From: a virus
Taxonomy: Duplodnaviria; Heunggongvirae; Uroviricota; Caudoviricetes
IMG/VR virus record: IMGVR_UViG_2711768052_000002
DNA: 37,726 bases
Strand: one strand, 5' to 3'
Within the stretch, counting starts at the first letter, position 1. The number at the start of each line of letters is the position of its first letter. Below, in pieces: positions 1-37,726 of this stretch. The position numbers and the translations under genes are program-made. The notes below the pieces were generated by a model. The model searched no databases. It worked only from the letters and a program-made list of their open reading frames with translations, and had not been told where the DNA came from.

Positions 1-142
1 CATATTACGTGGGTAGGATCACGCAGGGGTCGGCCCATTTGAGCTTCAGATAGGAACGTTTGAATTCCTTTCACAAAATACATCACATACTGAACGTGAA
101 CATTCCCACTTTGATCTTAAGGCCAAAAAGTATGCAGGACTA

Positions 143-871
143 ATGATTTTTAGGGATAGCTTGAGAGTATTACCTTATGGTCGAGTAGATAATGATTTCT
201 TCCAGATAGAAGAAAGACGTTCATGGAATGCAGGGCGATATTATTGGTCTAATAGAAGGATTTTTGGTTATATTGGAATTACTCAATCCAGTAATAAAGA
301 GCTGAAAGATAAGTCGGGGAGAGAGGGATTCATAAGAAACCAGGCTGCAAGAGAACTGAAAACTATTATATCTAATTTGTTAACTGAACTTGCTGATAGA
401 TTTTTTGGTTCACGTTCTGATGACCGTAAAGAGCTTTTAGAACAAGTTAAGCGTGAAAAAGAGTTAAGAAAATCTGCTCAACAACAAGCTCGAAAATCAA
501 CACAAAAAAGTTTTTCAGAAGCTTTGAAGAATCAGACACCAGTTCTTGATGCTTCCTTGGAGGCTGTTAAAAGGCTGAAAACTAAGCTTGATAAAACTGA
601 TGGTTCGTTAGATTTAAACTATCTTAAAATTATAGACAGTGATCTTACAAACTTAGATGCGTTGCGCAGTGAAATTAAAACGCCTATCAAACCTCCAAAA
701 CTTGGAATGTATGAAGAGAAATATAGAGACTACAGAGATAAATTTAATGAGTTCTCTGCGTATATTCTACAAATGAAGTTAGCAATTAATAAACTTGATT
801 CTGAATTAAATAAACTTGAGCCTTCATTGTCAGCGAAAAATCACCTTGAAAAAAAATCAAGGTATTATTAA
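143..871 (+). CDS. N-terminal coiled-coil/sensor-like segment of a histidine-kinase-like protein (probably the 5' part of one gene continued in 816..1862 after a frameshift)
   Basis: ATG at 143 follows an in-frame stop at 14..16; Lys/Glu-rich heptad-like sequence (ELLEQVKREKELRKSAQQQARKS); ORF ends right after an A8 run (~848..855) while the downstream histidine-kinase frame is already open from ~810. Confidence 0.45.
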   Translation: MIFRDSLRVLPYGRVDNDFFQIEERRSWNAGRYYWSNRRIFGYIGITQSSNKELKDKSGREGFIRNQAARELKTIISNLLTELADRFFGSRSDDRKELLEQVKREKELRKSAQQQARKSTQKSFSEALKNQTPVLDASLEAVKRLKTKLDKTDGSLDLNYLKIIDSDLTNLDALRSEIKTPIKPPKLGMYEEKYRDYRDKFNEFSAYILQMKLAINKLDSELNKLEPSLSAKNHLEKKSRYY

Positions 872-1862
872 TTCTAAACTAACTAAGTTTAATAACACGA
901 TAGAGGAGAAGATACATTCTCTTTTAAAAAAATGGGCCGATGAAATAAAGGTTGATCGAAGTGATTATTATGCTAAAACTATATCAGTTGTTGATTCAAT
1001 AGATAATGATTCACAAATTGAAAATGTGTTTAATTTGCTCGATAGTTTATATGTTGAGTCAGTTGATACCCTAACTTTCAAATATCAATCAATAATAAAA
1101 GGTCTCGATAGATTATTTGAAGGTATAAACTTAGATTCAGCATTCTCATTATCTGAAGAAGAACGCTCATATTTTGAAGAAAAAGCTAAAAGTTTAAACG
1201 CGCTTGCACAGTTAGGTATTAGTGTTGAGATAATATCTCATGAACTTGAAGAAATGGATTCTATGGTAACCAGAGGACTAAACTCTCTTCCTACTTCTGT
1301 AAAAGAACACCCTGGTTTTTCATTGGCGTTAAATGCTCACAGATCGCTTACTCAACAAATACGTTTCTTATCACCTTTGAAAATATCAGGTTATCAATCC
1401 AGGCAGAGAATAACTGGAAAAAATATCATGGATTATGTCCTGAAGTTCTTTGGGGAGCGTTTCGAACGGCAACGAATAACTATTGAATTTAGTGAAGAGT
1501 TTAAGCAAATCGCAATAACAGATATACCATCAAGGATCTATCCTGTTTTTACTAATATTATCAACAATGCAATGTATTGGGTCAGTCTGTCAAATAATAG
1601 GCTCATAAAGATTGGTTTTGTGAATTCTTTGGTTATCATAGCAAATTCTGGTCCGGCAATTGATACCGATGATATCCCGCGACTATTTGAACTATTTTAT
1701 AGCAAAAGAGCAAATGGACATGGGGTAGGTCTGTATCTATGTCGAGAAAACCTTGCTGTTGCACATCATAAAATATGGTATTCAGAACCTGATGAAGGCG
1801 ATAACTATTTAATAAAAGATGGCGCTAATTTTGTGATCCAGTTCAATGGAGTGGAGTTCTAA
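816..1862 (+). CDS. histidine kinase catalytic core (HisKA-like H-box + HATPase_c/GHKL ATPase)
   Basis: H-box-like IISHELEEMDS; N-box-like FTNIINNAMYW; G1/F/G2 region ANSGPAIDTDDIPRLFELFYSKRANGHGVGLYLCRENL. Track start is a TTG; the first ATG in this frame is ~145 codons in, so the true N-terminus is probably supplied by ORF 143..871. Confidence 0.6.
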   Translation: MSLHCQRKITLKKNQGIINSKLTKFNNTIEEKIHSLLKKWADEIKVDRSDYYAKTISVVDSIDNDSQIENVFNLLDSLYVESVDTLTFKYQSIIKGLDRLFEGINLDSAFSLSEEERSYFEEKAKSLNALAQLGISVEIISHELEEMDSMVTRGLNSLPTSVKEHPGFSLALNAHRSLTQQIRFLSPLKISGYQSRQRITGKNIMDYVLKFFGERFERQRITIEFSEEFKQIAITDIPSRIYPVFTNIINNAMYWVSLSNNRLIKIGFVNSLVIIANSGPAIDTDDIPRLFELFYSKRANGHGVGLYLCRENLAVAHHKIWYSEPDEGDNYLIKDGANFVIQFNGVEF

Positions 1863-1863
1863 T

Positions 1864-3612
1864 ATGACAGTGGCAAATTATAATTCTCTTGTCCAGAAAA
1901 CTTTCTGCGAAAATGCAATTCGTTCCGTTGTCATGATTGATGACGATTTTCTGACGTATTCTGAATCAATCAGGGCGTTGAATAACGAAGTTGATTTAGA
2001 CTACAACAAAATTGACTCATCTAAACGAGCCGCTACTCTTGAGAGCTTTTTTCAATCTAAAAATATGATTTGTGATGTTGACAATGGTTCTGTTAATTTC
2101 GATGTGGATCGGATTAGAAAATCAGATCTTATTATTGTAGATTATCATCTTGATAATAATGCACCTGATAAAACACTTAAACCATTACAAGATTTGAAAG
2201 ACTCCGATCATTTAAATATGATTGTAATATATACTAGAGAGAATTTAGAAACGGTTTGGATGCAGATATCATCGACTCTCAAAGGTGCTCTGGATATCAA
2301 CAGCTTGATCATTGACTACGATAATGAAGATGTCCAAAGTTATTGGGAAGACGTTGTATTACCGAACTTAAATGATAATGGTAATAAAGCTCTCACAAGA
2401 GATGAAACAATAGCCTATATTAAAGACAGTAAGCCTTGTAGAAGAATTAAAAGATTAATACATGATGATGCTGTGTTGGAGGATCAAAAGGATAAAAACT
2501 TCATTGCAAAAATGATTGCAGAATATGCTGTGTCTAGAAATGCAATTATTTCTAGCAACACATCTGGCAATGTCATTCGGGGTGATGAAAGCGGAGTAAA
2601 ATGGATTCAATGTGGTAATATCTTTGTCTCCCTATTTCATAAGGTTCAAGATGATCATGAAAACGATGGAGATAGGATTTGGCAAACTCTCAATGATTCT
2701 CTCATTGAATGGAAACCATCTTATTATCAGTTAATAAAATCTGAAATTCAGAATGCAATCGAAGCTGAGGCTTTATCTTTTGTAAATCATTTGGCTAACG
2801 ATCATTACGGTCAAGCTGCGTGGTTAAATGAGATATTAAAATCAGACTCGCCTGATATTAGATGTAGAAATATTGACTTTGTATTTGGTAATTTATCAGA
2901 AGAGCTTTATCAAAGACTTAAAAATAATAATACGCTGGATGAATTTATCAAAAGTGTTTTTGATAGCTATTCAAATGAATACGCTAACAGCGGAGTTGCT
3001 GCATTGCTCCAATATTGCTCTTCAAAAATGGATCTGCCATCAAATAATGATACTTATCACGAAATGTATCATGCTTTAAATATGAATTTGTCTTCAAAGA
3101 ATTTTGAAGATGGTCATATTTCTACTGGCACTATTTTCTTTGATACAGAGTCGAACAAATGGTATTTATGTGTATCTGCGGCATGTGATTTGGTTCCTAC
3201 TCAGGGTAACGACCCTCACCATGTAAGATTAAGTCCGCACAGGCTCATTAAAGTTCTGGAGCTTTTTAACGCCAGTCAGAGTAAAGCATTGCCATTTGCT
3301 GAACATTCGAAATATATATATGTAATGCATAAAAATCAAAGAAAATATCTCTCTATTTTCGAAGGGGATAAAACGCTTCCTGTTGTTGATTATATGGTGG
3401 TGTTGAATCATGGAACAACAGTTGATGGCGAAGAAAAAAATATTATTTCTGCCGTGTTTTTAAGTAATATGGATGGCAACGTGCAAAATGTTCCTGTCCG
3501 ACTCAAACTTAAATCTCAACTGAGAACTGGTTATGCAGAAAGATATCAGGCTATAGCGTCTCAGTATAGCTCAAGGATTGGTGTGGATTATGTATCAATG
3601 ATGCTACCATAA
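1864..3612 (+). CDS. receiver (REC)-like domain protein with ~430-aa C-terminal domain of unknown function (candidate effector)
   Basis: N-terminal receiver-like motifs: VVMIDDDF (acidic pocket), DLIIVDYHLD (candidate phospho-Asp), MIVIYTREN (conserved Thr). Start placed at ATG 1864, just after the upstream stop with GGAG upstream; track alternative is ATG 1846. No recognisable motif in the C-terminal two thirds. Confidence 0.55.
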   Translation: MTVANYNSLVQKTFCENAIRSVVMIDDDFLTYSESIRALNNEVDLDYNKIDSSKRAATLESFFQSKNMICDVDNGSVNFDVDRIRKSDLIIVDYHLDNNAPDKTLKPLQDLKDSDHLNMIVIYTRENLETVWMQISSTLKGALDINSLIIDYDNEDVQSYWEDVVLPNLNDNGNKALTRDETIAYIKDSKPCRRIKRLIHDDAVLEDQKDKNFIAKMIAEYAVSRNAIISSNTSGNVIRGDESGVKWIQCGNIFVSLFHKVQDDHENDGDRIWQTLNDSLIEWKPSYYQLIKSEIQNAIEAEALSFVNHLANDHYGQAAWLNEILKSDSPDIRCRNIDFVFGNLSEELYQRLKNNNTLDEFIKSVFDSYSNEYANSGVAALLQYCSSKMDLPSNNDTYHEMYHALNMNLSSKNFEDGHISTGTIFFDTESNKWYLCVSAACDLVPTQGNDPHHVRLSPHRLIKVLELFNASQSKALPFAEHSKYIYVMHKNQRKYLSIFEGDKTLPVVDYMVVLNHGTTVDGEEKNIISAVFLSNMDGNVQNVPVRLKLKSQLRTGYAERYQAIASQYSSRIGVDYVSMMLP

Positions 3613-3684
3613 TTATTATATTTTAGGCGTGGTGATTTTTTTTTCGCCATGCCTATTTTATATTTATCATCACAATGATGTTGT

Positions 3685-4101
3685 TTATTTTTGTTTAAGT
3701 CTTCTAAGCTTCATGCATTCTAATGAGAATAATAATAGAGTTGTGCTGTATATAAAGCCAGAGTTAGTTAATAACTTTAAATTTAATGCTTCAGGATTTT
3801 CACTGAGAAAGTGAAAGGCATAAACTAAGTATACAGCTAAAGTAGCCGTTCCAATTGTTGGTCCAATATCGCCTTGATCATGAGGTTCAAGGTTTACATT
3901 GAACTTGAAGATTAGCCATTCAAATCCCCAAGTAAAAAAAACAACTAATATCATGGCTGCGAATAATTTCGCGATGTTATCTGCTGATGGATTCATCAGA
4001 ACAGATTGTTTCTGAAAAAATTCACAAAGTGAGAGTCCGAAAAAAATAAAAAAAAGTGGTCTGGAACTAAATTTTTCAAAAACTTTGAATAGGGTTTCCA
4101 T
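3685..4101 (-). CDS. small integral membrane protein, hypothetical
   Basis: 138-aa ORF with 3-4 hydrophobic stretches (LFFIFFGLSL, AAMILVVFFTWGFEWLIF, TATLAVYLVYAF, IYSTTLLLF); AT-rich; convergent with the kinase/receiver pair. Confidence 0.45.
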   Translation of the reverse strand: METLFKVFEKFSSRPLFFIFFGLSLCEFFQKQSVLMNPSADNIAKLFAAMILVVFFTWGFEWLIFKFNVNLEPHDQGDIGPTIGTATLAVYLVYAFHFLSENPEALNLKLLTNSGFIYSTTLLLFSLECMKLRRLKQK

Positions 4102-4139
4102 TTTCTTTACCTTCAGGATTATATTAGCTATTCTGATAC

Positions 4140-5411
4140 TTAGGCTACCAGAGCATTTGATCTTTGAGCTTGAACGTAATCACTCCACCATTGCATCAAA
4201 CTCTGTCGCTCTATCAGATATTCTGCACGATTGTATGCTGCGATAATTTCATCTTTTTTCGAGTGGGCAAGCGCTGCCTCAAGAACTTCAGCTCTGAATT
4301 TACCAGACTCCTCTGCCGCTGTTCGTGCAATAGAACGCATACCGTGAGCTACAAGCTCGCCTCCGAACCCCATTCGGATGATAGCTGCGTTGGCTGTTTG
4401 TTCATGCATATGATTAAGAGGCGCTTTTATGCTGGGGAAAACCCATTCTCTATGCCCACTTATTGATTTCATTAATTCAAGGATGCGCAAAGCTTCTTTA
4501 CTCAAAGGAACTTTGTGAAGCTTTTTCATTTTCATGAAATCAGCAGGAATGTTCCAAATGCTGTTGGTTGTATCAATATCAGACCACCTTGCGCGAACGG
4601 CTTCACCCGGACGAACCCATGTCAACAATTGCCATTCAATTAGCATACGTGTTTCCAACCGGATTGACGCATTCGTCAAAGATTCCATAAACCTTGGCAA
4701 TTCGCTTGGGGGAAGGGCAGGCATATTTTGCTTTTTTGGTTTACTGAATCTTTGACCAAGGTTGTCAGCCGGGTTGAACTCAATAAGTTCTTCAGTAGCT
4801 GCCCACCGGAAGATTTCATTCAGACGTGAAATGATACGGCGTAGAGTTTCCAATACGCCTCGTTGCTCAATAGGATCAAGGTGTTGTTTTAAGAGCTTAG
4901 GTCGGATCTCATTGATAGGGACATTACCCAGACCGGGAAAGACATTTCTCTCTAAGCTGCGCCAGATGTCTGCTGCATGGTCTTGTGAGATACCTGATGT
5001 CTTTACCTTCTCATCTAACCATTTCCGCGCTACGGCTTGGAGAGTGTGCTCAGTAGCACTCTTTAATGCCTTCGCCTTATCGTTGTTATGGATTTGGGGA
5101 TCAACACCATTTGCCAGAAAGGAGAGATATTCATCACGTAAGGCTCTGGCTCTTGCAAGGGTAAGGTGAGGATATGTCCCAAGGCTCATTTTGGTTCTTT
5201 TCTTGCTCACTGGTACTGCATACCTGAAATACCAATTTTTCTTGCCTCCTTTCGCCAAAGGAGCGATTCGTAGAATCAGACCATCACCGTCAAACAAGTT
5301 GATTTCTTTATCGGCTGGCTTGGTGCTTTTGATTTCAGTGTCAGTGAGCTTCTTAGCGATTTTTGCCATTTTGGGACCCTCGGTTTTTGGACCCTTCTTA
5401 GTGGGTCCCAT
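4140..5411 (-). CDS. int: tyrosine-type site-specific integrase, P4 family
   Basis: N-terminal arm-binding signature LTDTEIKSTKP...LFDGDGLILRI...KNWYFRY typical of P4/CP4-57 IntA-type integrases; C-terminal catalytic region (HGMRSIARTAAEESG, AAYNRAEY); sits next to the ssrA 3' fragment. Confidence 0.9.
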   Translation of the reverse strand: MGPTKKGPKTEGPKMAKIAKKLTDTEIKSTKPADKEINLFDGDGLILRIAPLAKGGKKNWYFRYAVPVSKKRTKMSLGTYPHLTLARARALRDEYLSFLANGVDPQIHNNDKAKALKSATEHTLQAVARKWLDEKVKTSGISQDHAADIWRSLERNVFPGLGNVPINEIRPKLLKQHLDPIEQRGVLETLRRIISRLNEIFRWAATEELIEFNPADNLGQRFSKPKKQNMPALPPSELPRFMESLTNASIRLETRMLIEWQLLTWVRPGEAVRARWSDIDTTNSIWNIPADFMKMKKLHKVPLSKEALRILELMKSISGHREWVFPSIKAPLNHMHEQTANAAIIRMGFGGELVAHGMRSIARTAAEESGKFRAEVLEAALAHSKKDEIIAAYNRAEYLIERQSLMQWWSDYVQAQRSNALVA

Positions 5412-5534
5412 TCAGGGTGCCATAACTCGTAGTTCTCAGCAATTCTCACTGGACGACAATAGACGTAAAAAAGCCCGCAGAGCTTGTGCTGTGTGGGCTT
5501 AGTAGACTTCATTGAACTTCAAACAACTAAAAAG

Positions 5535-5567
5535 TGGTGGAGCTGGCGGGAGTTGAACCCGAGTCCG
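5535..5567 (-). other. ssrA: 3'-terminal fragment of ssrA (tmRNA) - putative att core repeat
   Basis: Minus-strand reading CGGACTCGGGTTCAACTCCCGCCAGCTCCACCA matches the recalled 3' acceptor/T-arm end of E. coli tmRNA (one mismatch) including CCA; flanking sequence on the 5' side does not continue as tmRNA, so only the terminal ~33 nt are present. Confidence 0.75.
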
Positions 5568-5578
5568 AATTTTTTTAA

Positions 5579-6397
5579 CTATCTGTTTTTATTAAAATCA
5601 TGCTCATCCATAAAATCTGCGTAGCTTTTGCGTATCCTTTCTAGGACAACCTGTGTCCAACACTGTTTGGATGTGAAAAGAATATCTATGTCTAAAATTA
5701 GATCTAAGCCATTTCCGTAAAAAGATACGCTCTTAAATTCTGTTGTGAAAATTTTCTTTCTTTTCTTATTGTTTACATCTCTATATTCAAGGATAAGGTC
5801 CGGCCCTATAAACGATGAGATGGAGGTGGTTACAAGATAATTACCAATTAATTCTGGCACCAATGGGGGAAATGGTATGGTTGTTTTCTCTTTGTCTTTA
5901 ATATTCGGAGTTATAAATTCTATCAAAGTTCCTTTTTTTTGAAAGCTATTATGTTTTTGCGGACCTCTACCAAAAATATCAACATTCAAGAAGTTATTGT
6001 TGTCTTTGATTGTAAAAAACTCTTCATTTTGCAAAAATATCTCATGTGATTTTTGTGTGTTGTTATTATCTATTTTGAATTTGTTTATCTTAATATATTT
6101 CTCATACTCTTCAGACCAGTAGTGATTTATTTTTATAGCTGGGCCAAGACCTATGTTGAGAAGCTCTATATTCAAAGTGGTTGGTGATATTTCTATGTTC
6201 TTAAATAATTTCAAGTTATCTCTGTGCATCCATGTGAATTTTGTATTCTTAGGTAAAATTTGAGGTTTGTTTGAAATTATTCTTTGCTGCCATGTTTGGT
6301 ACATTGCAAAAAATGCAATTATGACACTTATTATGGCTATGAAGTCGGTAGTGGTAATTGAGTAACCTAACATTTTTATTAAATCTGTGTTATTCAT
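5579..6397 (-). CDS. hypothetical membrane-anchored protein (single N-terminal TM helix), AT-rich cargo gene
   Basis: 272-aa ORF; N-terminal hydrophobic helix FIAIISVIIAFFAMY then a Lys/Asn-rich soluble domain; located between the ssrA att fragment and the prophage integrase. Confidence 0.5.
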   Translation of the reverse strand: MNNTDLIKMLGYSITTTDFIAIISVIIAFFAMYQTWQQRIISNKPQILPKNTKFTWMHRDNLKLFKNIEISPTTLNIELLNIGLGPAIKINHYWSEEYEKYIKINKFKIDNNNTQKSHEIFLQNEEFFTIKDNNNFLNVDIFGRGPQKHNSFQKKGTLIEFITPNIKDKEKTTIPFPPLVPELIGNYLVTTSISSFIGPDLILEYRDVNNKKRKKIFTTEFKSVSFYGNGLDLILDIDILFTSKQCWTQVVLERIRKSYADFMDEHDFNKNR

Positions 6398-6436: not shown

Positions 6437-7612
6437 TTAATTAGTACAATTTATCAAATGATTGTGTGTGCTATTGTTATCATAATCTTTAAGATAACGG
6501 CCGTAATGCCTAAATAGCATTTCTGGTCCTTTATGCCCCATTTGAGCGGCTAACCAAAACAAATTAACACCTTGACTAATGTGTTTTGTAGCAAATGTAT
6601 GTCTAGTTTGATAAGGATTACGGTAACGGACTCCGGCTTTACGTAAAGTTGGCACCCATGCCTTCTTTCTTATGGCGTCTGCGCTGGCCCAAGGTTTATT
6701 GGTTTTTGGATCTTCAAAGACAGTCGCGTCCTTCATGAAAGTGAACGGTTTCTGATTTATTAGTGCAGACATTGCTTCATCTGTCAGTTCAACTTTTCGA
6801 GTACCTGCTTTTGTTTTGGTACCTTTGATTACACCAACAACACTGGCGCTCTGGACGTGGGCAGTCCTCCCTACAAAGTCAATATCACGCCATCTAAGGG
6901 CACATAATTCAGAACTACGCAGACCTGTATTTATAGCGAACCGGAACAGATTCTCCCATTGTTTGTTTCCGGCTGCTGCTAGTAATGCATCAACTTCTGC
7001 TGGTGATAGCGGATCAACCACGTAGCGGCTTTCTGCTTCTGACTTATCACTTTGGTAGCGCGAAGCAGTTACCAACGATACGGGGTTAATTTGAAGTACC
7101 CCATCGGTTACGGCTTCATCAAGTGCTGACCGCAGGAAAGATAACTGGTTGCGAATTGTTTTTAAGGTCGTTTTCTGGCTTTGAATCCACGCTTTCAGGA
7201 TTGCTGGTGTTAATTCACTTGCAGAGCAAATGTGGAGTGAGGCTAACGCACTACGGCATTTTTTATAACCACCAATCGTAGAGGGTGAAAGTTTTCTCGT
7301 TTCGCAGATTTCAAGGTATTCGTCCAAGTACATTTTTACCGTTTTGCCTGCAGCAGCATTACCAAAAATTTTCAAACGAGCAGAACGGGGAAAATATTCC
7401 GCATAAATGAATGTTCCCCTTTCGATCTTATTATGAATTTCACCGAGTGTGCGCTCGGCGTATTTTATGTTCTTTGGTGTTACTTCCAGATTGGAAAGAG
7501 GCTCACGACATTTAACTCCTTTGTAGGTGAAAGTTATATTGATCGTTTCGCCCTGGCGGTGTTTCCTGATTGTTACGCCGCGCGGTAGTTTGAGCAGTTT
7601 TGTCTGGCCCAT
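6437..7612 (-). CDS. int: tyrosine-type integrase, lambda family
   Basis: 391 aa; catalytic-domain motifs (GLRSSELCALRWRDID, HKGPEMLFRHYGRYL with catalytic Tyr context, RHTFATKHI); 5' end overlaps the upstream xis-like ORF as in lambda. Confidence 0.9.
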   Translation of the reverse strand: MGQTKLLKLPRGVTIRKHRQGETINITFTYKGVKCREPLSNLEVTPKNIKYAERTLGEIHNKIERGTFIYAEYFPRSARLKIFGNAAAGKTVKMYLDEYLEICETRKLSPSTIGGYKKCRSALASLHICSASELTPAILKAWIQSQKTTLKTIRNQLSFLRSALDEAVTDGVLQINPVSLVTASRYQSDKSEAESRYVVDPLSPAEVDALLAAAGNKQWENLFRFAINTGLRSSELCALRWRDIDFVGRTAHVQSASVVGVIKGTKTKAGTRKVELTDEAMSALINQKPFTFMKDATVFEDPKTNKPWASADAIRKKAWVPTLRKAGVRYRNPYQTRHTFATKHISQGVNLFWLAAQMGHKGPEMLFRHYGRYLKDYDNNSTHNHLINCTN

Positions 7613-7791
7613 TTTGCAACCTCACTAAGATCAATCCACCTCTCCTTAACGCCTTCAACCTTTAAAACCTGAACACCTTCACGCCAAACACCGCGCTGTA
7701 CACGTTTGTTTATTGCTTCAGGAGTTTCGCCAGTTTCTTTGCAATAAGTTGAGATTGGAACACAATCGAGGTTCAGCATATGTTTCTCCAC
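7573..7791 (-). CDS. xis: excisionase (Xis-like) / AlpA-type DNA-binding protein
   Basis: 72-aa basic protein directly upstream of and overlapping int; winged-helix-like segment ETPEAINKRVQRGVWREGVQ resembles the lambda Xis pattern. Confidence 0.6.
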   Translation of the reverse strand: MEKHMLNLDCVPISTYCKETGETPEAINKRVQRGVWREGVQVLKVEGVKERWIDLSEVAKWARQNCSNYRAA

Positions 7792-16120: not shown

Positions 16121-17452
16121 TTACTGGATGAATGACATTTGATTAATATATTTTATCAATAACTCTCTGGGTGTAGTACTCCAAAAATTTAGGTGTTCAT
16201 AATCAGTATAAACATTGGTGAATTTTTTAAGTTCTTCATCACTTTTAGGGGCAAATCGCTCATTAAGAGTAATACTGTCTTTAATTATTCCGAAGAATAC
16301 AATAGATATTTCAGGAATTTGCGATCTTCTCTCATAAGAATAAGGTATTTCTTTTATGTTAAGCAGATCTGCTAAATGAGATATAGATTCTGCGGTAATT
16401 TCTTGTTTTAGTTTTTCCTTGTCACCAAAGCAATGTATGAAGACAGCTACGACAAAGATCTTATTTATTAAAGGATCACTGTTTTTGTACTCATCGTCGT
16501 TTAATAGTTGAAAAATGTTAAGATTGCGTGAAAAAGTTTGTGTTTCACGTAAGGATAAGTTGGTTCGTTGAATTAAATCACGGATAAATCTACCAGATAA
16601 ACTATTAATTTCATTTAATGATTTTGTCTTGTCTACAAGGTAATTCCAATATATAACAGATGTTTTACATACGACGTGACCATTTATTAAACATGTGTCT
16701 GGAAGCGTGATGGTATATTTTATAAACTTGTCAAGATACTTTTGTGAGTTAATACTATAACCATAAATATGATTTATCGATGCTTTTAATTGTTCTGTGT
16801 TTGTAACTAAAATAAAAAAGACATTATTGATGTCAAAAATGTGTTTTATTGTTTCAATGACATTTGTTGAAAAACTCGGCTTACATCGGTCTAATTCATC
16901 AATTATAATTACTATCTTTTGACTTTCTGAAATGCTTTCGATACAAGATTTAAGTGAATTTATGTTTTTCTCTGATTCCATATGGTCTTCAAGCAAATTT
17001 TCAATAGTCCCATCTATTGCTGCATTGCTTGCTTTCTTCATCGCATCTTGGAATTCTTCGGAAACTTCACTAGCCTCCTGTCGTAAAAACCAACCTGCAC
17101 CAGCTTTTAGTACCGTTTTTAAACCAAAGCGAATTGCAGGAAGAGATCTCTTAATGAAGTGTTGTTTTTCTTCCTCAGGTAAAATGCTGGCAATTGCAGA
17201 GGTTATGAGAAGTAATGGAGATTCTGCATGATCCCCTTTAAAGGCATCAATATAAACAACTTTAGATTCAGTTTCTTGCTCAATAATGAGATTTTTCAGT
17301 TTGATACTAAATTCTGTTTTCCCTGTTCCCCATGCGCCGTCTATTACCAGTGGTGAAATGTCTGCCTCTGGTTTTAGCAACTTGATGATATTTTCAGCGA
17401 TGTTTCTGCGTTGGAACTCGTCACGTTCAGTGAAAGATAGTGTATCTAACAT
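16121..17452 (-). CDS. KAP-family P-loop NTPase (moron cargo)
   Basis: Walker A in KAP form GAWGTGKTEF and Walker B IVIIIDELDRCKP (the DELDR signature typical of KAP NTPases); AT-rich; opposite strand to the phage operons; inserted between Q and the late terminator. Confidence 0.7.
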   Translation of the reverse strand: MLDTLSFTERDEFQRRNIAENIIKLLKPEADISPLVIDGAWGTGKTEFSIKLKNLIIEQETESKVVYIDAFKGDHAESPLLLITSAIASILPEEEKQHFIKRSLPAIRFGLKTVLKAGAGWFLRQEASEVSEEFQDAMKKASNAAIDGTIENLLEDHMESEKNINSLKSCIESISESQKIVIIIDELDRCKPSFSTNVIETIKHIFDINNVFFILVTNTEQLKASINHIYGYSINSQKYLDKFIKYTITLPDTCLINGHVVCKTSVIYWNYLVDKTKSLNEINSLSGRFIRDLIQRTNLSLRETQTFSRNLNIFQLLNDDEYKNSDPLINKIFVVAVFIHCFGDKEKLKQEITAESISHLADLLNIKEIPYSYERRSQIPEISIVFFGIIKDSITLNERFAPKSDEELKKFTNVYTDYEHLNFWSTTPRELLIKYINQMSFIQ

Positions 17453-19094: not shown

Positions 19095-19721
19095 TCAGTT
19101 GTCAAATGAATATACGTTAAAGGTATATGTCGACATAATTTCACCAAGTACCTCAATACATATACTTTTTTTATGAAAGATACTGGGGAAGGAACTTAGC
19201 TCTTCAAGGCATTGCACATAAGTGCTGATATCACTTGCATCACGTTCAAGGAATTTCACTTGGCCAAAAGAAGGAGTATTAATCCTAGTTCTTTGCTGGA
19301 TTATATGGATAAAATGTGTAGTTGGTGAAACTATTACTCTTGAAATATCGGAAATGATGTCTTCTTGAACTTGCCGATAAAGTAAATCCTTTGGGTAATG
19401 GTGTTTGATCTCGATGGTTGCAACATTGCCATTATGTTCAGACGTTAATATCGACTGGTTATAAAGTGATATGTCAACAGCGCCGATACCGAGTTTTGGA
19501 TGCTCACTTAAAGCAGTTAGTGTGCTGATTTGATTGAGAATAACAACTAACTCATCACGTATTTGAGTTTCATGTTTGCGATTGTAGAAGTAGCAATTCA
19601 GTTCATTTAACTTTTTATGCATCCTATCGTGACTAATTGCTTCGATCAGTAAATCCTGAATCATACTTTTCTCTAGGTAATCCGAACGGTTGTAAGTGAC
19701 AGTATTGTGCTGGCATGTCAT
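19095..19721 (-). CDS. hypothetical protein, possible PD-(D/E)xK-type nuclease (moron cargo)
   Basis: 208-aa AT-rich ORF on the strand opposite the phage late genes; GAVDIS...(~20 aa)...VATIEIKHH fits a D...E-x-K nuclease arrangement (tentative). Confidence 0.5.
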   Translation of the reverse strand: MTCQHNTVTYNRSDYLEKSMIQDLLIEAISHDRMHKKLNELNCYFYNRKHETQIRDELVVILNQISTLTALSEHPKLGIGAVDISLYNQSILTSEHNGNVATIEIKHHYPKDLLYRQVQEDIISDISRVIVSPTTHFIHIIQQRTRINTPSFGQVKFLERDASDISTYVQCLEELSSFPSIFHKKSICIEVLGEIMSTYTFNVYSFDN

Positions 19722-19764
19722 TAGTATGTAAAGGTATTGTGAATGCCAGCAAGATAACGAAGTA

Positions 19765-20118
19765 TCATCGATAGAAAAACTTTACGGCCCACTCGTAAAC
19801 CGCTTTGTAAATCGGTTCATGGTAAATACTATCGATACTATTCAGATGTGCGATCATCGCCTCCACAGTTGTAGTGGTTGTTTCTAATATTTCGATTATT
19901 GCAGGGCGGTCATCATCTTCATCGAAGTATTCGAACAGCAGTACAGGTTTACCATGCCATTCAGCATCTGAGACTCTAAGGTTACAACTACCGCTCAACT
20001 CAAAGTGAATTTTGTAATTACCTTCTACAGAATGGCCTACGGGGAAAAAGCATAGGGTGTCATCTTTGTTTAAAAGCCATTCCCATTCATAACTATTCAT
20101 TTGTGAACTCCTGTTCAT
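19765..20118 (-). CDS. hypothetical small acidic protein (moron cargo, upstream partner of 19095..19721)
   Basis: 117-aa AT-rich ORF with RBS GGAG before the ATG; acidic stretch EYFDEDDDRPAIIEILETTTTT; co-oriented and tightly spaced with the downstream 208-aa ORF. Confidence 0.5.
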   Translation of the reverse strand: MNRSSQMNSYEWEWLLNKDDTLCFFPVGHSVEGNYKIHFELSGSCNLRVSDAEWHGKPVLLFEYFDEDDDRPAIIEILETTTTTVEAMIAHLNSIDSIYHEPIYKAVYEWAVKFFYR

Positions 20119-37422: not shown

Positions 37423-37726
37423 ATGCATCGTATAGACACGAAAACCGCGCAGAAGGATAAGTTCGGCGCGGGTAAGAACGGTTTTACCCGTGGTAACCCC
37501 CAGACCGGCACGCCTGCCACCGATCTGGATGATGACTACTTTGACATGTTGCAGGAGGAGCTTTGCAGCGTTGTGGAGGCATCCGGTGCCAGCCTGGAGA
37601 AGGGGCGGCATGACCAGCTGCTTACCGCGCTTCGTGCGCTGCTGTTAAGCCGCAAGAATCCGTTTGGCGATATCAAATCGGATGGCACGGTGAAAACAGC
37701 TCTCGAAAACCTTGGTTTGGGAGAAG
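37423..37726 (+). CDS. tail fibre protein, N-terminal part (3' end outside window)
   Basis: N-terminus [56 protein letters not shown] matches the conserved N-terminal pattern of enterobacterial phage tail fibres; RBS GGAG upstream; ORF runs to the window edge. Confidence 0.65.

Follow-up and report, generated by a model that had tools for sequence, protein, structure and literature searches.

How a short copy of the 3′ end of ssrA, the gene for tmRNA, came to lie between two dissimilar integrase genes is the question raised by the virus-derived DNA analysed here (IMG/VR record IMGVR_UViG_2711768052_000002; its full 37,726 nucleotides are referred to as the window). An earlier note had read the arrangement as two elements stacked in tandem at the ssrA attachment site. 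At positions 5535–5567 the plus strand reads tggtggagctggcgggagttgaacccgagtccg and the minus strand CGGACTCGGGTTCAACTCCCGCCAGCTCCACCA, and 32 of the 33 minus-strand bases are identical to the last 33 nt of Escherichia coli ssrA (cggacGcgggttcaactcccgccagctccacca; strains K-12, KSC1031 and 503025). The sole mismatch is a T instead of a G at window position 5562, and the identity with this one mismatch continues to 5569, giving 35 nt in total. The 26-mer GGGTTCAAC...CCACCA occurs once in the window and in none of 100 shuffles.

The tmRNA body that would belong to this 3′ end is absent, as the earlier note had stated. ARAGORN found no tRNA or tmRNA in the whole window, and an Rfam scan of the same sequence at the gathering threshold gave no RNA family match, which excludes an intact tmRNA gene; a permissive Rfam scan returned a tmRNA (RF00023) match at 5535–5609 of 22 bits, below the gathering score of 47. 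A complete tRNA-like domain, both acceptor strands, the tag frame, the pseudoknots and a score above the family threshold are thus all missing, and the 3′ 33–35 nt are what is present. Judged from the tRNA-like domain of tmRNA, the T at 5562 would abolish the first base pair of the T-stem, without consequence in a relic that is not transcribed. Survival of the 3′ end alone, the sub-threshold match and the T-stem mismatch are also in keeping with a decaying ssrA pseudogene left by a deletion instead of a duplicate made by integration. The features of the fragment itself and to its right are as follows.

5535–5559, minus strand: 25-bp attachment core GGTTCAACTCCCGCCAGCTCCACCA, the ssrA 3′ end, the same as the attP/attB core of phage ΦNP
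5560–5569, minus strand: imperfect ssrA extension on the phage side, TTCGGACTCG, with the T at 5562 replacing the ssrA G
5579–6397, minus strand: variable cargo gene orf272, encoding 272 aa with an N-terminal transmembrane helix, between int and attR
5616–5659, minus strand: conserved motifs of the phage P arm, a tandem of AAARGnnmCGC at 5616–5640 and GGACAC at 5651–5659
6437–7612, minus strand: ΦNP-type tyrosine integrase (Pfam Arm-DNA-bind_2, SAM_5 and Phage_integrase)
7573–7791, minus strand: excisionase (phrog_2917, E 1.6e-45; annotated as xis in ΦNP)
7792–37726, plus strand: body of an SfV/ΦNP-like myovirus prophage, running off the right end of the window

ΦNP is a temperate phage of Citrobacter rodentium (Petty et al. 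2011, PMC3072379; Magaziner et al. 2019, PMC6456863) for which a 25-bp attP, identical to the attB at the ssrA 3′ end, was defined experimentally, and its integration in E. coli K-12 lysogens, with an intact ssrA reconstituted, was confirmed by sequencing (PMC6456863). The prophage-derived ΦNP record both starts and ends with the same 25-mer. The core of this ΦNP-type ssrA attachment site, TGGTGGAGCTGGCGGGAGTTGAACC, matches the window exactly at 5535–5559, and the cognate integrase and excisionase adjoin it, as such an attachment site requires. The integrase is 91% identical to ΦNP Int and its stop codon lies 870 bp from the fragment, so that the identification of the fragment as an att core in the earlier note is borne out. 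That note had also placed a lambda-type int/xis pair about 900 bp away; the pairing, the arm binding and the distance stand, but the N-domain is Arm-DNA-bind_2 (DUF3596) of the ΦNP type and not that of lambda Int, and the term lambda-type is therefore true only loosely. Int/Xis-dependent excision and integration at the core have been demonstrated experimentally for ΦNP itself only (PMC6456863).

Besides the core and the integrase, the window shares with ΦNP the order xis, int, cargo, core, a homologous P′ arm (seen in the E. coli relatives discussed below) and the myovirus type with a contractile tail. It differs from ΦNP in the cargo next to int, which is an AAA ATPase gene plus an unannotated 1-kb stretch there and a membrane-protein ORF here, in head and tail genes that are closer to those of Shigella phage SfV and E. 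coli phage vB_EcoM-720R4 (96–98% identity), and in carrying a different substitution on the phage-side flank of the core. Within the prophage body the early region is e14-like, the head is of the HK97 type and the contractile tail is Mu-like; lysis genes are also present, and on the right the window stops inside the tail-fibre region. Two minus-strand features of this body are side observations. One is a gene of 443 aa with a GC content of 0.30 (16121–17452), which separates the Q antiterminator from the lysis genes; among the PADLOC families it matches the candidate defence family PDC-S20 (E 7.6e-177) and, more weakly, PifA and QatA. The other consists of two low-GC ORFs of 208 and 117 aa (19095–20118) that lie, in opposite orientation, where the lysis genes give way to the terminase genes; they had no PADLOC match.

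The sequence just 5′ of the 25-mer varies between strains (the window has T, strain 3985 AT and KSC1031 AGAA, and ΦNP shows a G-to-T change), while the 25-mer itself is invariant across the strains compared. Since the flank is variable and the block invariant, we infer that the flank derives from attP and that strand exchange took place inside the invariant block; the imperfect extension at 5560–5569 was thus probably inherited from attP.

On the other side of the core, the window holds a different set of genes.

1–4139: remainder of a decayed islet, with a HEF_HK/HATPase gene, a Response_reg_2 gene and a 138-aa membrane ORF
143–1862, plus strand: HEF_HK/HATPase gene, frameshifted at 849
1846–3612, plus strand: Response_reg_2 gene, assigned by Pfam
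3685–4101, minus strand: 138-aa membrane ORF
4140–5369, minus strand: P4/IntA-type tyrosine integrase of the ssrA islet (Pfam Arm-DNA-bind_3, Phage_int_M and Phage_integrase)
5467–5499, minus strand: terminator-like stem (5485–5471) plus T-run, downstream of the core, in the arm of the P4-type islet

The P4-type integrase gene directly follows the 3′ end of ssrA, shares its strand and is transcribed away from the core fragment, in agreement with the earlier note. Its reading frame extends as far as an ATG at 5411 (4140–5411), but the alignment with IntA of the K-12 element CP4-57, with which it shares 48% identity, begins at residue 15 and the start is therefore likely at 5369. The ORF is intact in the window and frameshifted in KSC1031. 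Window positions 1–5569 align without a break, at 99.91% identity and straight through the core, to E. coli strain 503025, where the order is smpB, ssrA, P4-type int, 138-aa ORF, Response_reg_2, HEF_HK/HATPase, IS3, truncated ygaQ and glaH. Two 1-nt indels separate the sequences: an inserted A at 849, which splits the HEF_HK/HATPase gene into ORFs 143–871 and 816–1862 and is either a frameshift or a sequencing error, and an intergenic indel at 3636. The plus-strand cargo at 143–3612 forms a two-component-like pair, for which PADLOC gave no match; such HEF_HK/HATPase and Response_reg_2 modules have been associated with restriction-modification systems and paraMORC ATPases (bioRxiv 10.1101/2020.08.26.268516 / PMC8011034).

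The islet measures about 5.5 kb and terminates at the IS3 that also truncates ygaQ; position 1 of the window lies about 10 nt from this IS3 as placed in strain 503025. As an aside, the window is bounded by this insertion point on one side and by an invertible tail-fibre region on the other, both repeat-rich, which suggests that it is a draft-assembly contig bounded by repeats.

How common the junction between ssrA and the islet is was assessed with a chimeric 400-nt query, in which the last 200 nt of K-12 ssrA were joined to the 200 nt of the window next to the core on the islet side. Of 5426 complete E. coli genomes, 978 matched this query in a single piece, and in many of these the identity was 100%. 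Given this and the collinearity of strain 503025, a prophage-free state in which the islet abuts intact ssrA exists and is common. In such strains, the hairpin at 5467–5499, which is homologous to the K-12 sequence downstream of ssrA, would terminate ssrA transcripts.

The same counts bear on whether both integrases could be parts of a single composite element, mobile as a whole, in which the core would be an internal relic. The two int genes are 1 kb apart on the same strand, and many E. coli genomes as well as a Citrobacter koseri contig also have them side by side, as a composite would lead one to expect. Against it, the islet stands alone beside ssrA in the 978 genomes, and ΦNP-type phages without the islet are found in the ΦNP genome itself and at loci in Klebsiella, Enterobacter and C. 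braakii (L009, L010 and L012). The islet also has no distal att copy, so that a joint excision product would be without its second boundary, and we regard a composite element as extremely improbable.

This missing boundary defines the state of the P4-type element as well. Neither the complete islet of strain 503025 nor KSC1031 contains a distal repeat of the ssrA end; in a gapped local alignment the best score in the islet was 10, equal to background, and the known K-12 repeat psaA was recovered with a score of 15. Among the islet ORFs (five submitted to Pfam, the ATPase gene being counted split) there was no AlpA-type excisionase or regulator, and those other than int matched only HEF_HK/HATPase and Response_reg_2 or had no match. 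The P4-type element is a truncated remnant and not a second intact mobile element. Tandem integration as proposed in the earlier note is supported by the islet junction in the 978 genomes and by the ΦNP core, but one of the two stacked elements has decayed.

The opposite end of the prophage can be viewed in related genomes. The nearest E. coli relatives for window positions 1–25000 are UTAK-10 and KSC1031, with 81–82% coverage at about 97.6–97.7% identity. In KSC1031 the homologous prophage borders at its int end on the core fragment, beyond which lie the P4-type int and the islet, and its far end carries tail fibres, pinE and a BRO-N gene and then the intact ssrA with smpB; the arrangement in UTAK-10 is the same. 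In both genomes ssrA is oriented on what corresponds to the minus strand of the window, and a second copy of the core completes the intact gene at this other prophage end, a position that lies outside the window here. The sequence directly 3′ of ssrA in both (ATCATGATTGGACGGTGTAAGGACAAC...) is homologous to the ΦNP P′ arm and is therefore phage DNA. By analogy with these two genomes, which uphold the expectation of an intact ssrA beyond the right end of the window, the gene should be found about 6–7 kb past position 37726, predictably joined to a ATCATGATTGGACGG-type P′ arm at the tail-fibre/pin end of the prophage, although the prophage could be truncated or rearranged past the window end; in strains C7 and C3 the two junctions are megabases apart.

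An ssrA tail joined in one piece to a ΦNP-type P′ arm occurs in 2527 of the 5426 E. coli genomes, and both junction types, that with the ΦNP-type arm and that with the islet, are commonplace in E. coli. A pseudogene left by deletion is hard to reconcile with these data. The break in the ssrA identity coincides exactly with the published 25-bp core and with the point where a ΦNP-type int/xis module ends, homologous genomes keep ssrA intact at the opposite prophage end, and the prophage-free state is common; we consider such an origin scarcely credible.

Instead, we conclude with high confidence that the fragment is the attR of a ΦNP-like (SfV-type) prophage whose insertion separated ssrA from an older and decayed integrase islet. 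Before the phage arrived, ssrA would have been directly abutted by the roughly 5.5-kb islet, in the order int, small membrane ORF and HEF_HK/Response_reg_2, ending at IS3. The ΦNP-type Int would then have recombined attP with the 25-bp ssrA end that already carried the islet, in a crossover of the tyrosine-recombinase kind. On the attL side, outside the window to the right, ssrA body and core would be joined to the phage P′ arm with its own terminator, so that ssrA would stay functional; attR, in the window, would consist of the core flanked by the phage P arm and by the sequence that formerly lay downstream of ssrA. The original ssrA 3′ end would thereby have been displaced by about 39 kb, still joined to the islet and now with the P arm, cargo, int and xis on its other side. 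If the G-to-T difference at 5562 represents phage-derived sequence 5′ of the crossover, strand exchange would fall within the invariant 25–27 nt. Having neither promoter nor tmRNA body, the fragment would give rise to no tmRNA, and it would serve solely for recombination with attL during excision of the prophage by Int and Xis. Direct support covers the sequence identities and gene content, both configurations in other genomes (prophage-free and full) and the published ΦNP att site; from there we infer the order of arrival, the crossover position and the ability of this prophage to excise.

An insertion of this kind predicts how many copies of the core a genome should hold. The earlier note had expected copies at the boundary of each element, an expectation that fails because the islet lacks its distal copy in strain 503025 and KSC1031. 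Within the window, searches with the 26-mer (up to 3 mismatches) and a 14-mer (up to 2 mismatches) each found the fragment once and no further copy. KSC1031 has two copies 39 kb apart and no third in 90 kb. A ladder of three copies is ruled out by these counts together with the islet's lack of even a degenerate distal repeat, and since the P4-type islet is a remnant without its distal core copy, two copies and not three are to be expected in the source genome.

The order of arrival may also be questioned, since the prophage could have been the resident and the P4-type islet the later arrival, inserted at the distal (attR) copy of the core. A P4-type Int could in principle use any core copy, and the order of elements can differ, for K-12 has CP4-57 proximal and a ΦNP-like P′ arm remnant distal. 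However, the islet with its fixed boundary at IS3 and truncated ygaQ is 99.9% identical in about one fifth of E. coli genomes without the phage, whereas the prophages found here differ in both cargo and sequence. A near-identical islet combined with diverse prophages implies that phages inserted repeatedly and recently into an older site already bearing the islet, and a late arrival of the islet is very improbable.

The K-12 locus merits description in its own right. CP4-57 (ssrA-intA ... psaA) resembles the islet in having a P4-type int immediately 3′ of ssrA on the same strand and in an element arm that supplies a terminator-like hairpin. It differs in being 22 kb long, in encoding AlpA and in ending with the distal 14-nt ssrA repeat psaA, in contrast to an islet of about 5.5 kb with an IS3 end, no distal repeat and no AlpA-like gene found. 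Right after psaA (L005, 23473–23560), K-12 carries sequence homologous to the ΦNP-type P′ arm (ATCATGATTGGACGGTGTAAGGACAAC...), which is a relic of a ΦNP-like phage that occupied ssrA before CP4-57, and which may be connected with the pinH pseudogene further on. At the loci in Klebsiella, Enterobacter and C. braakii mentioned above, the ΦNP-type attR is followed by AAATTCTCCATCGGTGATTACCAGAGTCATCCGATGAA..., identical to the sequence between ssrA and intA in K-12. No P4-type integrase was found near the attR of these three loci, and AAATTCTCCATCGGTGATTACCAGAGTCATCCGATGAA... is either ancestral chromosomal DNA or a widespread arm of P4-type elements.

As Williams is said to have set out in 2003 under the title "Traffic at the tmRNA gene", different integrase families target the 3′ end of ssrA and build up tandem arrays there; successive insertions reportedly leave a ladder of 3′-end fragments, with the newest element adjoining the intact gene. 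The reverse order of arrival in K-12, where CP4-57 is next to ssrA and the P′ arm remnant follows psaA, fits this rule of the newest arrival next to the gene. In the window, distinct integrases lie on either side of an ssrA 3′-end fragment that is oriented like the intact gene, and we see no essential difference from the tandem arrays of Williams (2003), of which this locus is one more instance.

The junction also resembles, in part, the Salmonella Typhimurium island-encoded small RNA IsrM (STM2762/STM2763; PMC2330248, PMC3174252). The first ~20 and last ~76 nt of its Rfam model align to 5467–5544 on the minus strand, the 5′ end of the model falling on the ssrA tail and its 3′ end on the arm of the P4-type islet with the terminator-like hairpin. 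Unlike in IsrM, the central 253 nt are missing here (53 bits against a gathering score of 376), and an IsrM gene in the window is ruled out because the two model ends alone match. The resemblance suggests that IsrM may have arisen at an equivalent junction of an ssrA fragment and an integrase in Salmonella.

Between the core and int, the phage P arm and a cargo gene share the same DNA. The AAARGnnmCGC tandem and GGACAC are kept in eight P arms, about 50–100 nt from the core, and recur in three P′ arms in the same orientation, which makes them candidate arm-type sites for Int, or sites for an accessory protein, of a ΦNP-type attP. The 13-mer AAGGATACGCAAA has a single copy in the window and a single copy in 45 kb of KSC1031, the latter lying 91 nt 3′ of ssrA; the position of the conserved arm motif was also noted at L002 21583–21595. 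Exact AGGACA repeats were rejected as arm-type sites: they occur on the P′ arms of KSC1031 and ΦNP, but the P arms hold only one reverse-strand copy, in the window. Common to both arms are the shorter GGACAC and the AAARGnnmCGC tandem.

The last ~24 codons of orf272 overlap the P arm and contain these arm motifs. Neither Pfam nor PADLOC nor a fold search gave an assignment for the protein, whose family is rare and comprises 14 clusters; the 13 homologue clusters are 24–33% identical except for one relative at 93%. Across Escherichia, Klebsiella, Enterobacter and Citrobacter prophages the C-terminal tail of the family, IRKSYADFMxEHDFNKNR, is nonetheless almost invariant, and it is encoded by the DNA with the conserved arm motifs. 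Four homologues were located, in prophages of the last three genera, and in each of them the cargo gene stands between int and the core, with xis preceding int. The TAG at which orf272 stops, 11 nt from the core, also ends the unrelated cargo gene of strain 3985, and in other strains the slot between int and attR is filled by DarTG, RloB/AAA or ParA/YfdQ. It is conceivable, though doubtful, that the int-proximal attP arm of about 100 nt is embedded in the 3′ end of whichever cargo gene fills the slot, under a dual constraint in which recombination-site DNA also serves as coding sequence, and that the slot is a hotspot of cargo exchange. The orf272 membrane protein could be an undescribed exclusion or defence factor.

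The phenomenon as such is already known from ΦNP, CP4-57 and the tandem arrays at tmRNA genes, and the core fragment itself offers nothing new; its relevance is mainly one of annotation. The left boundary of the prophage is now fixed at 5535–5559, the position of the intact ssrA in the source genome is predicted, and the side-by-side integrases are explained, with the P4-type integrase belonging to a stranded remnant and not to a mobile island. The locus adds a further documented case to the ssrA insertion hotspot in E. coli, where the ΦNP-type arm and the islet are found in 2527 and 978 of 5426 genomes, respectively, and the slot between int and attR is a reasonable place to seek new phage-borne defence or exclusion genes.
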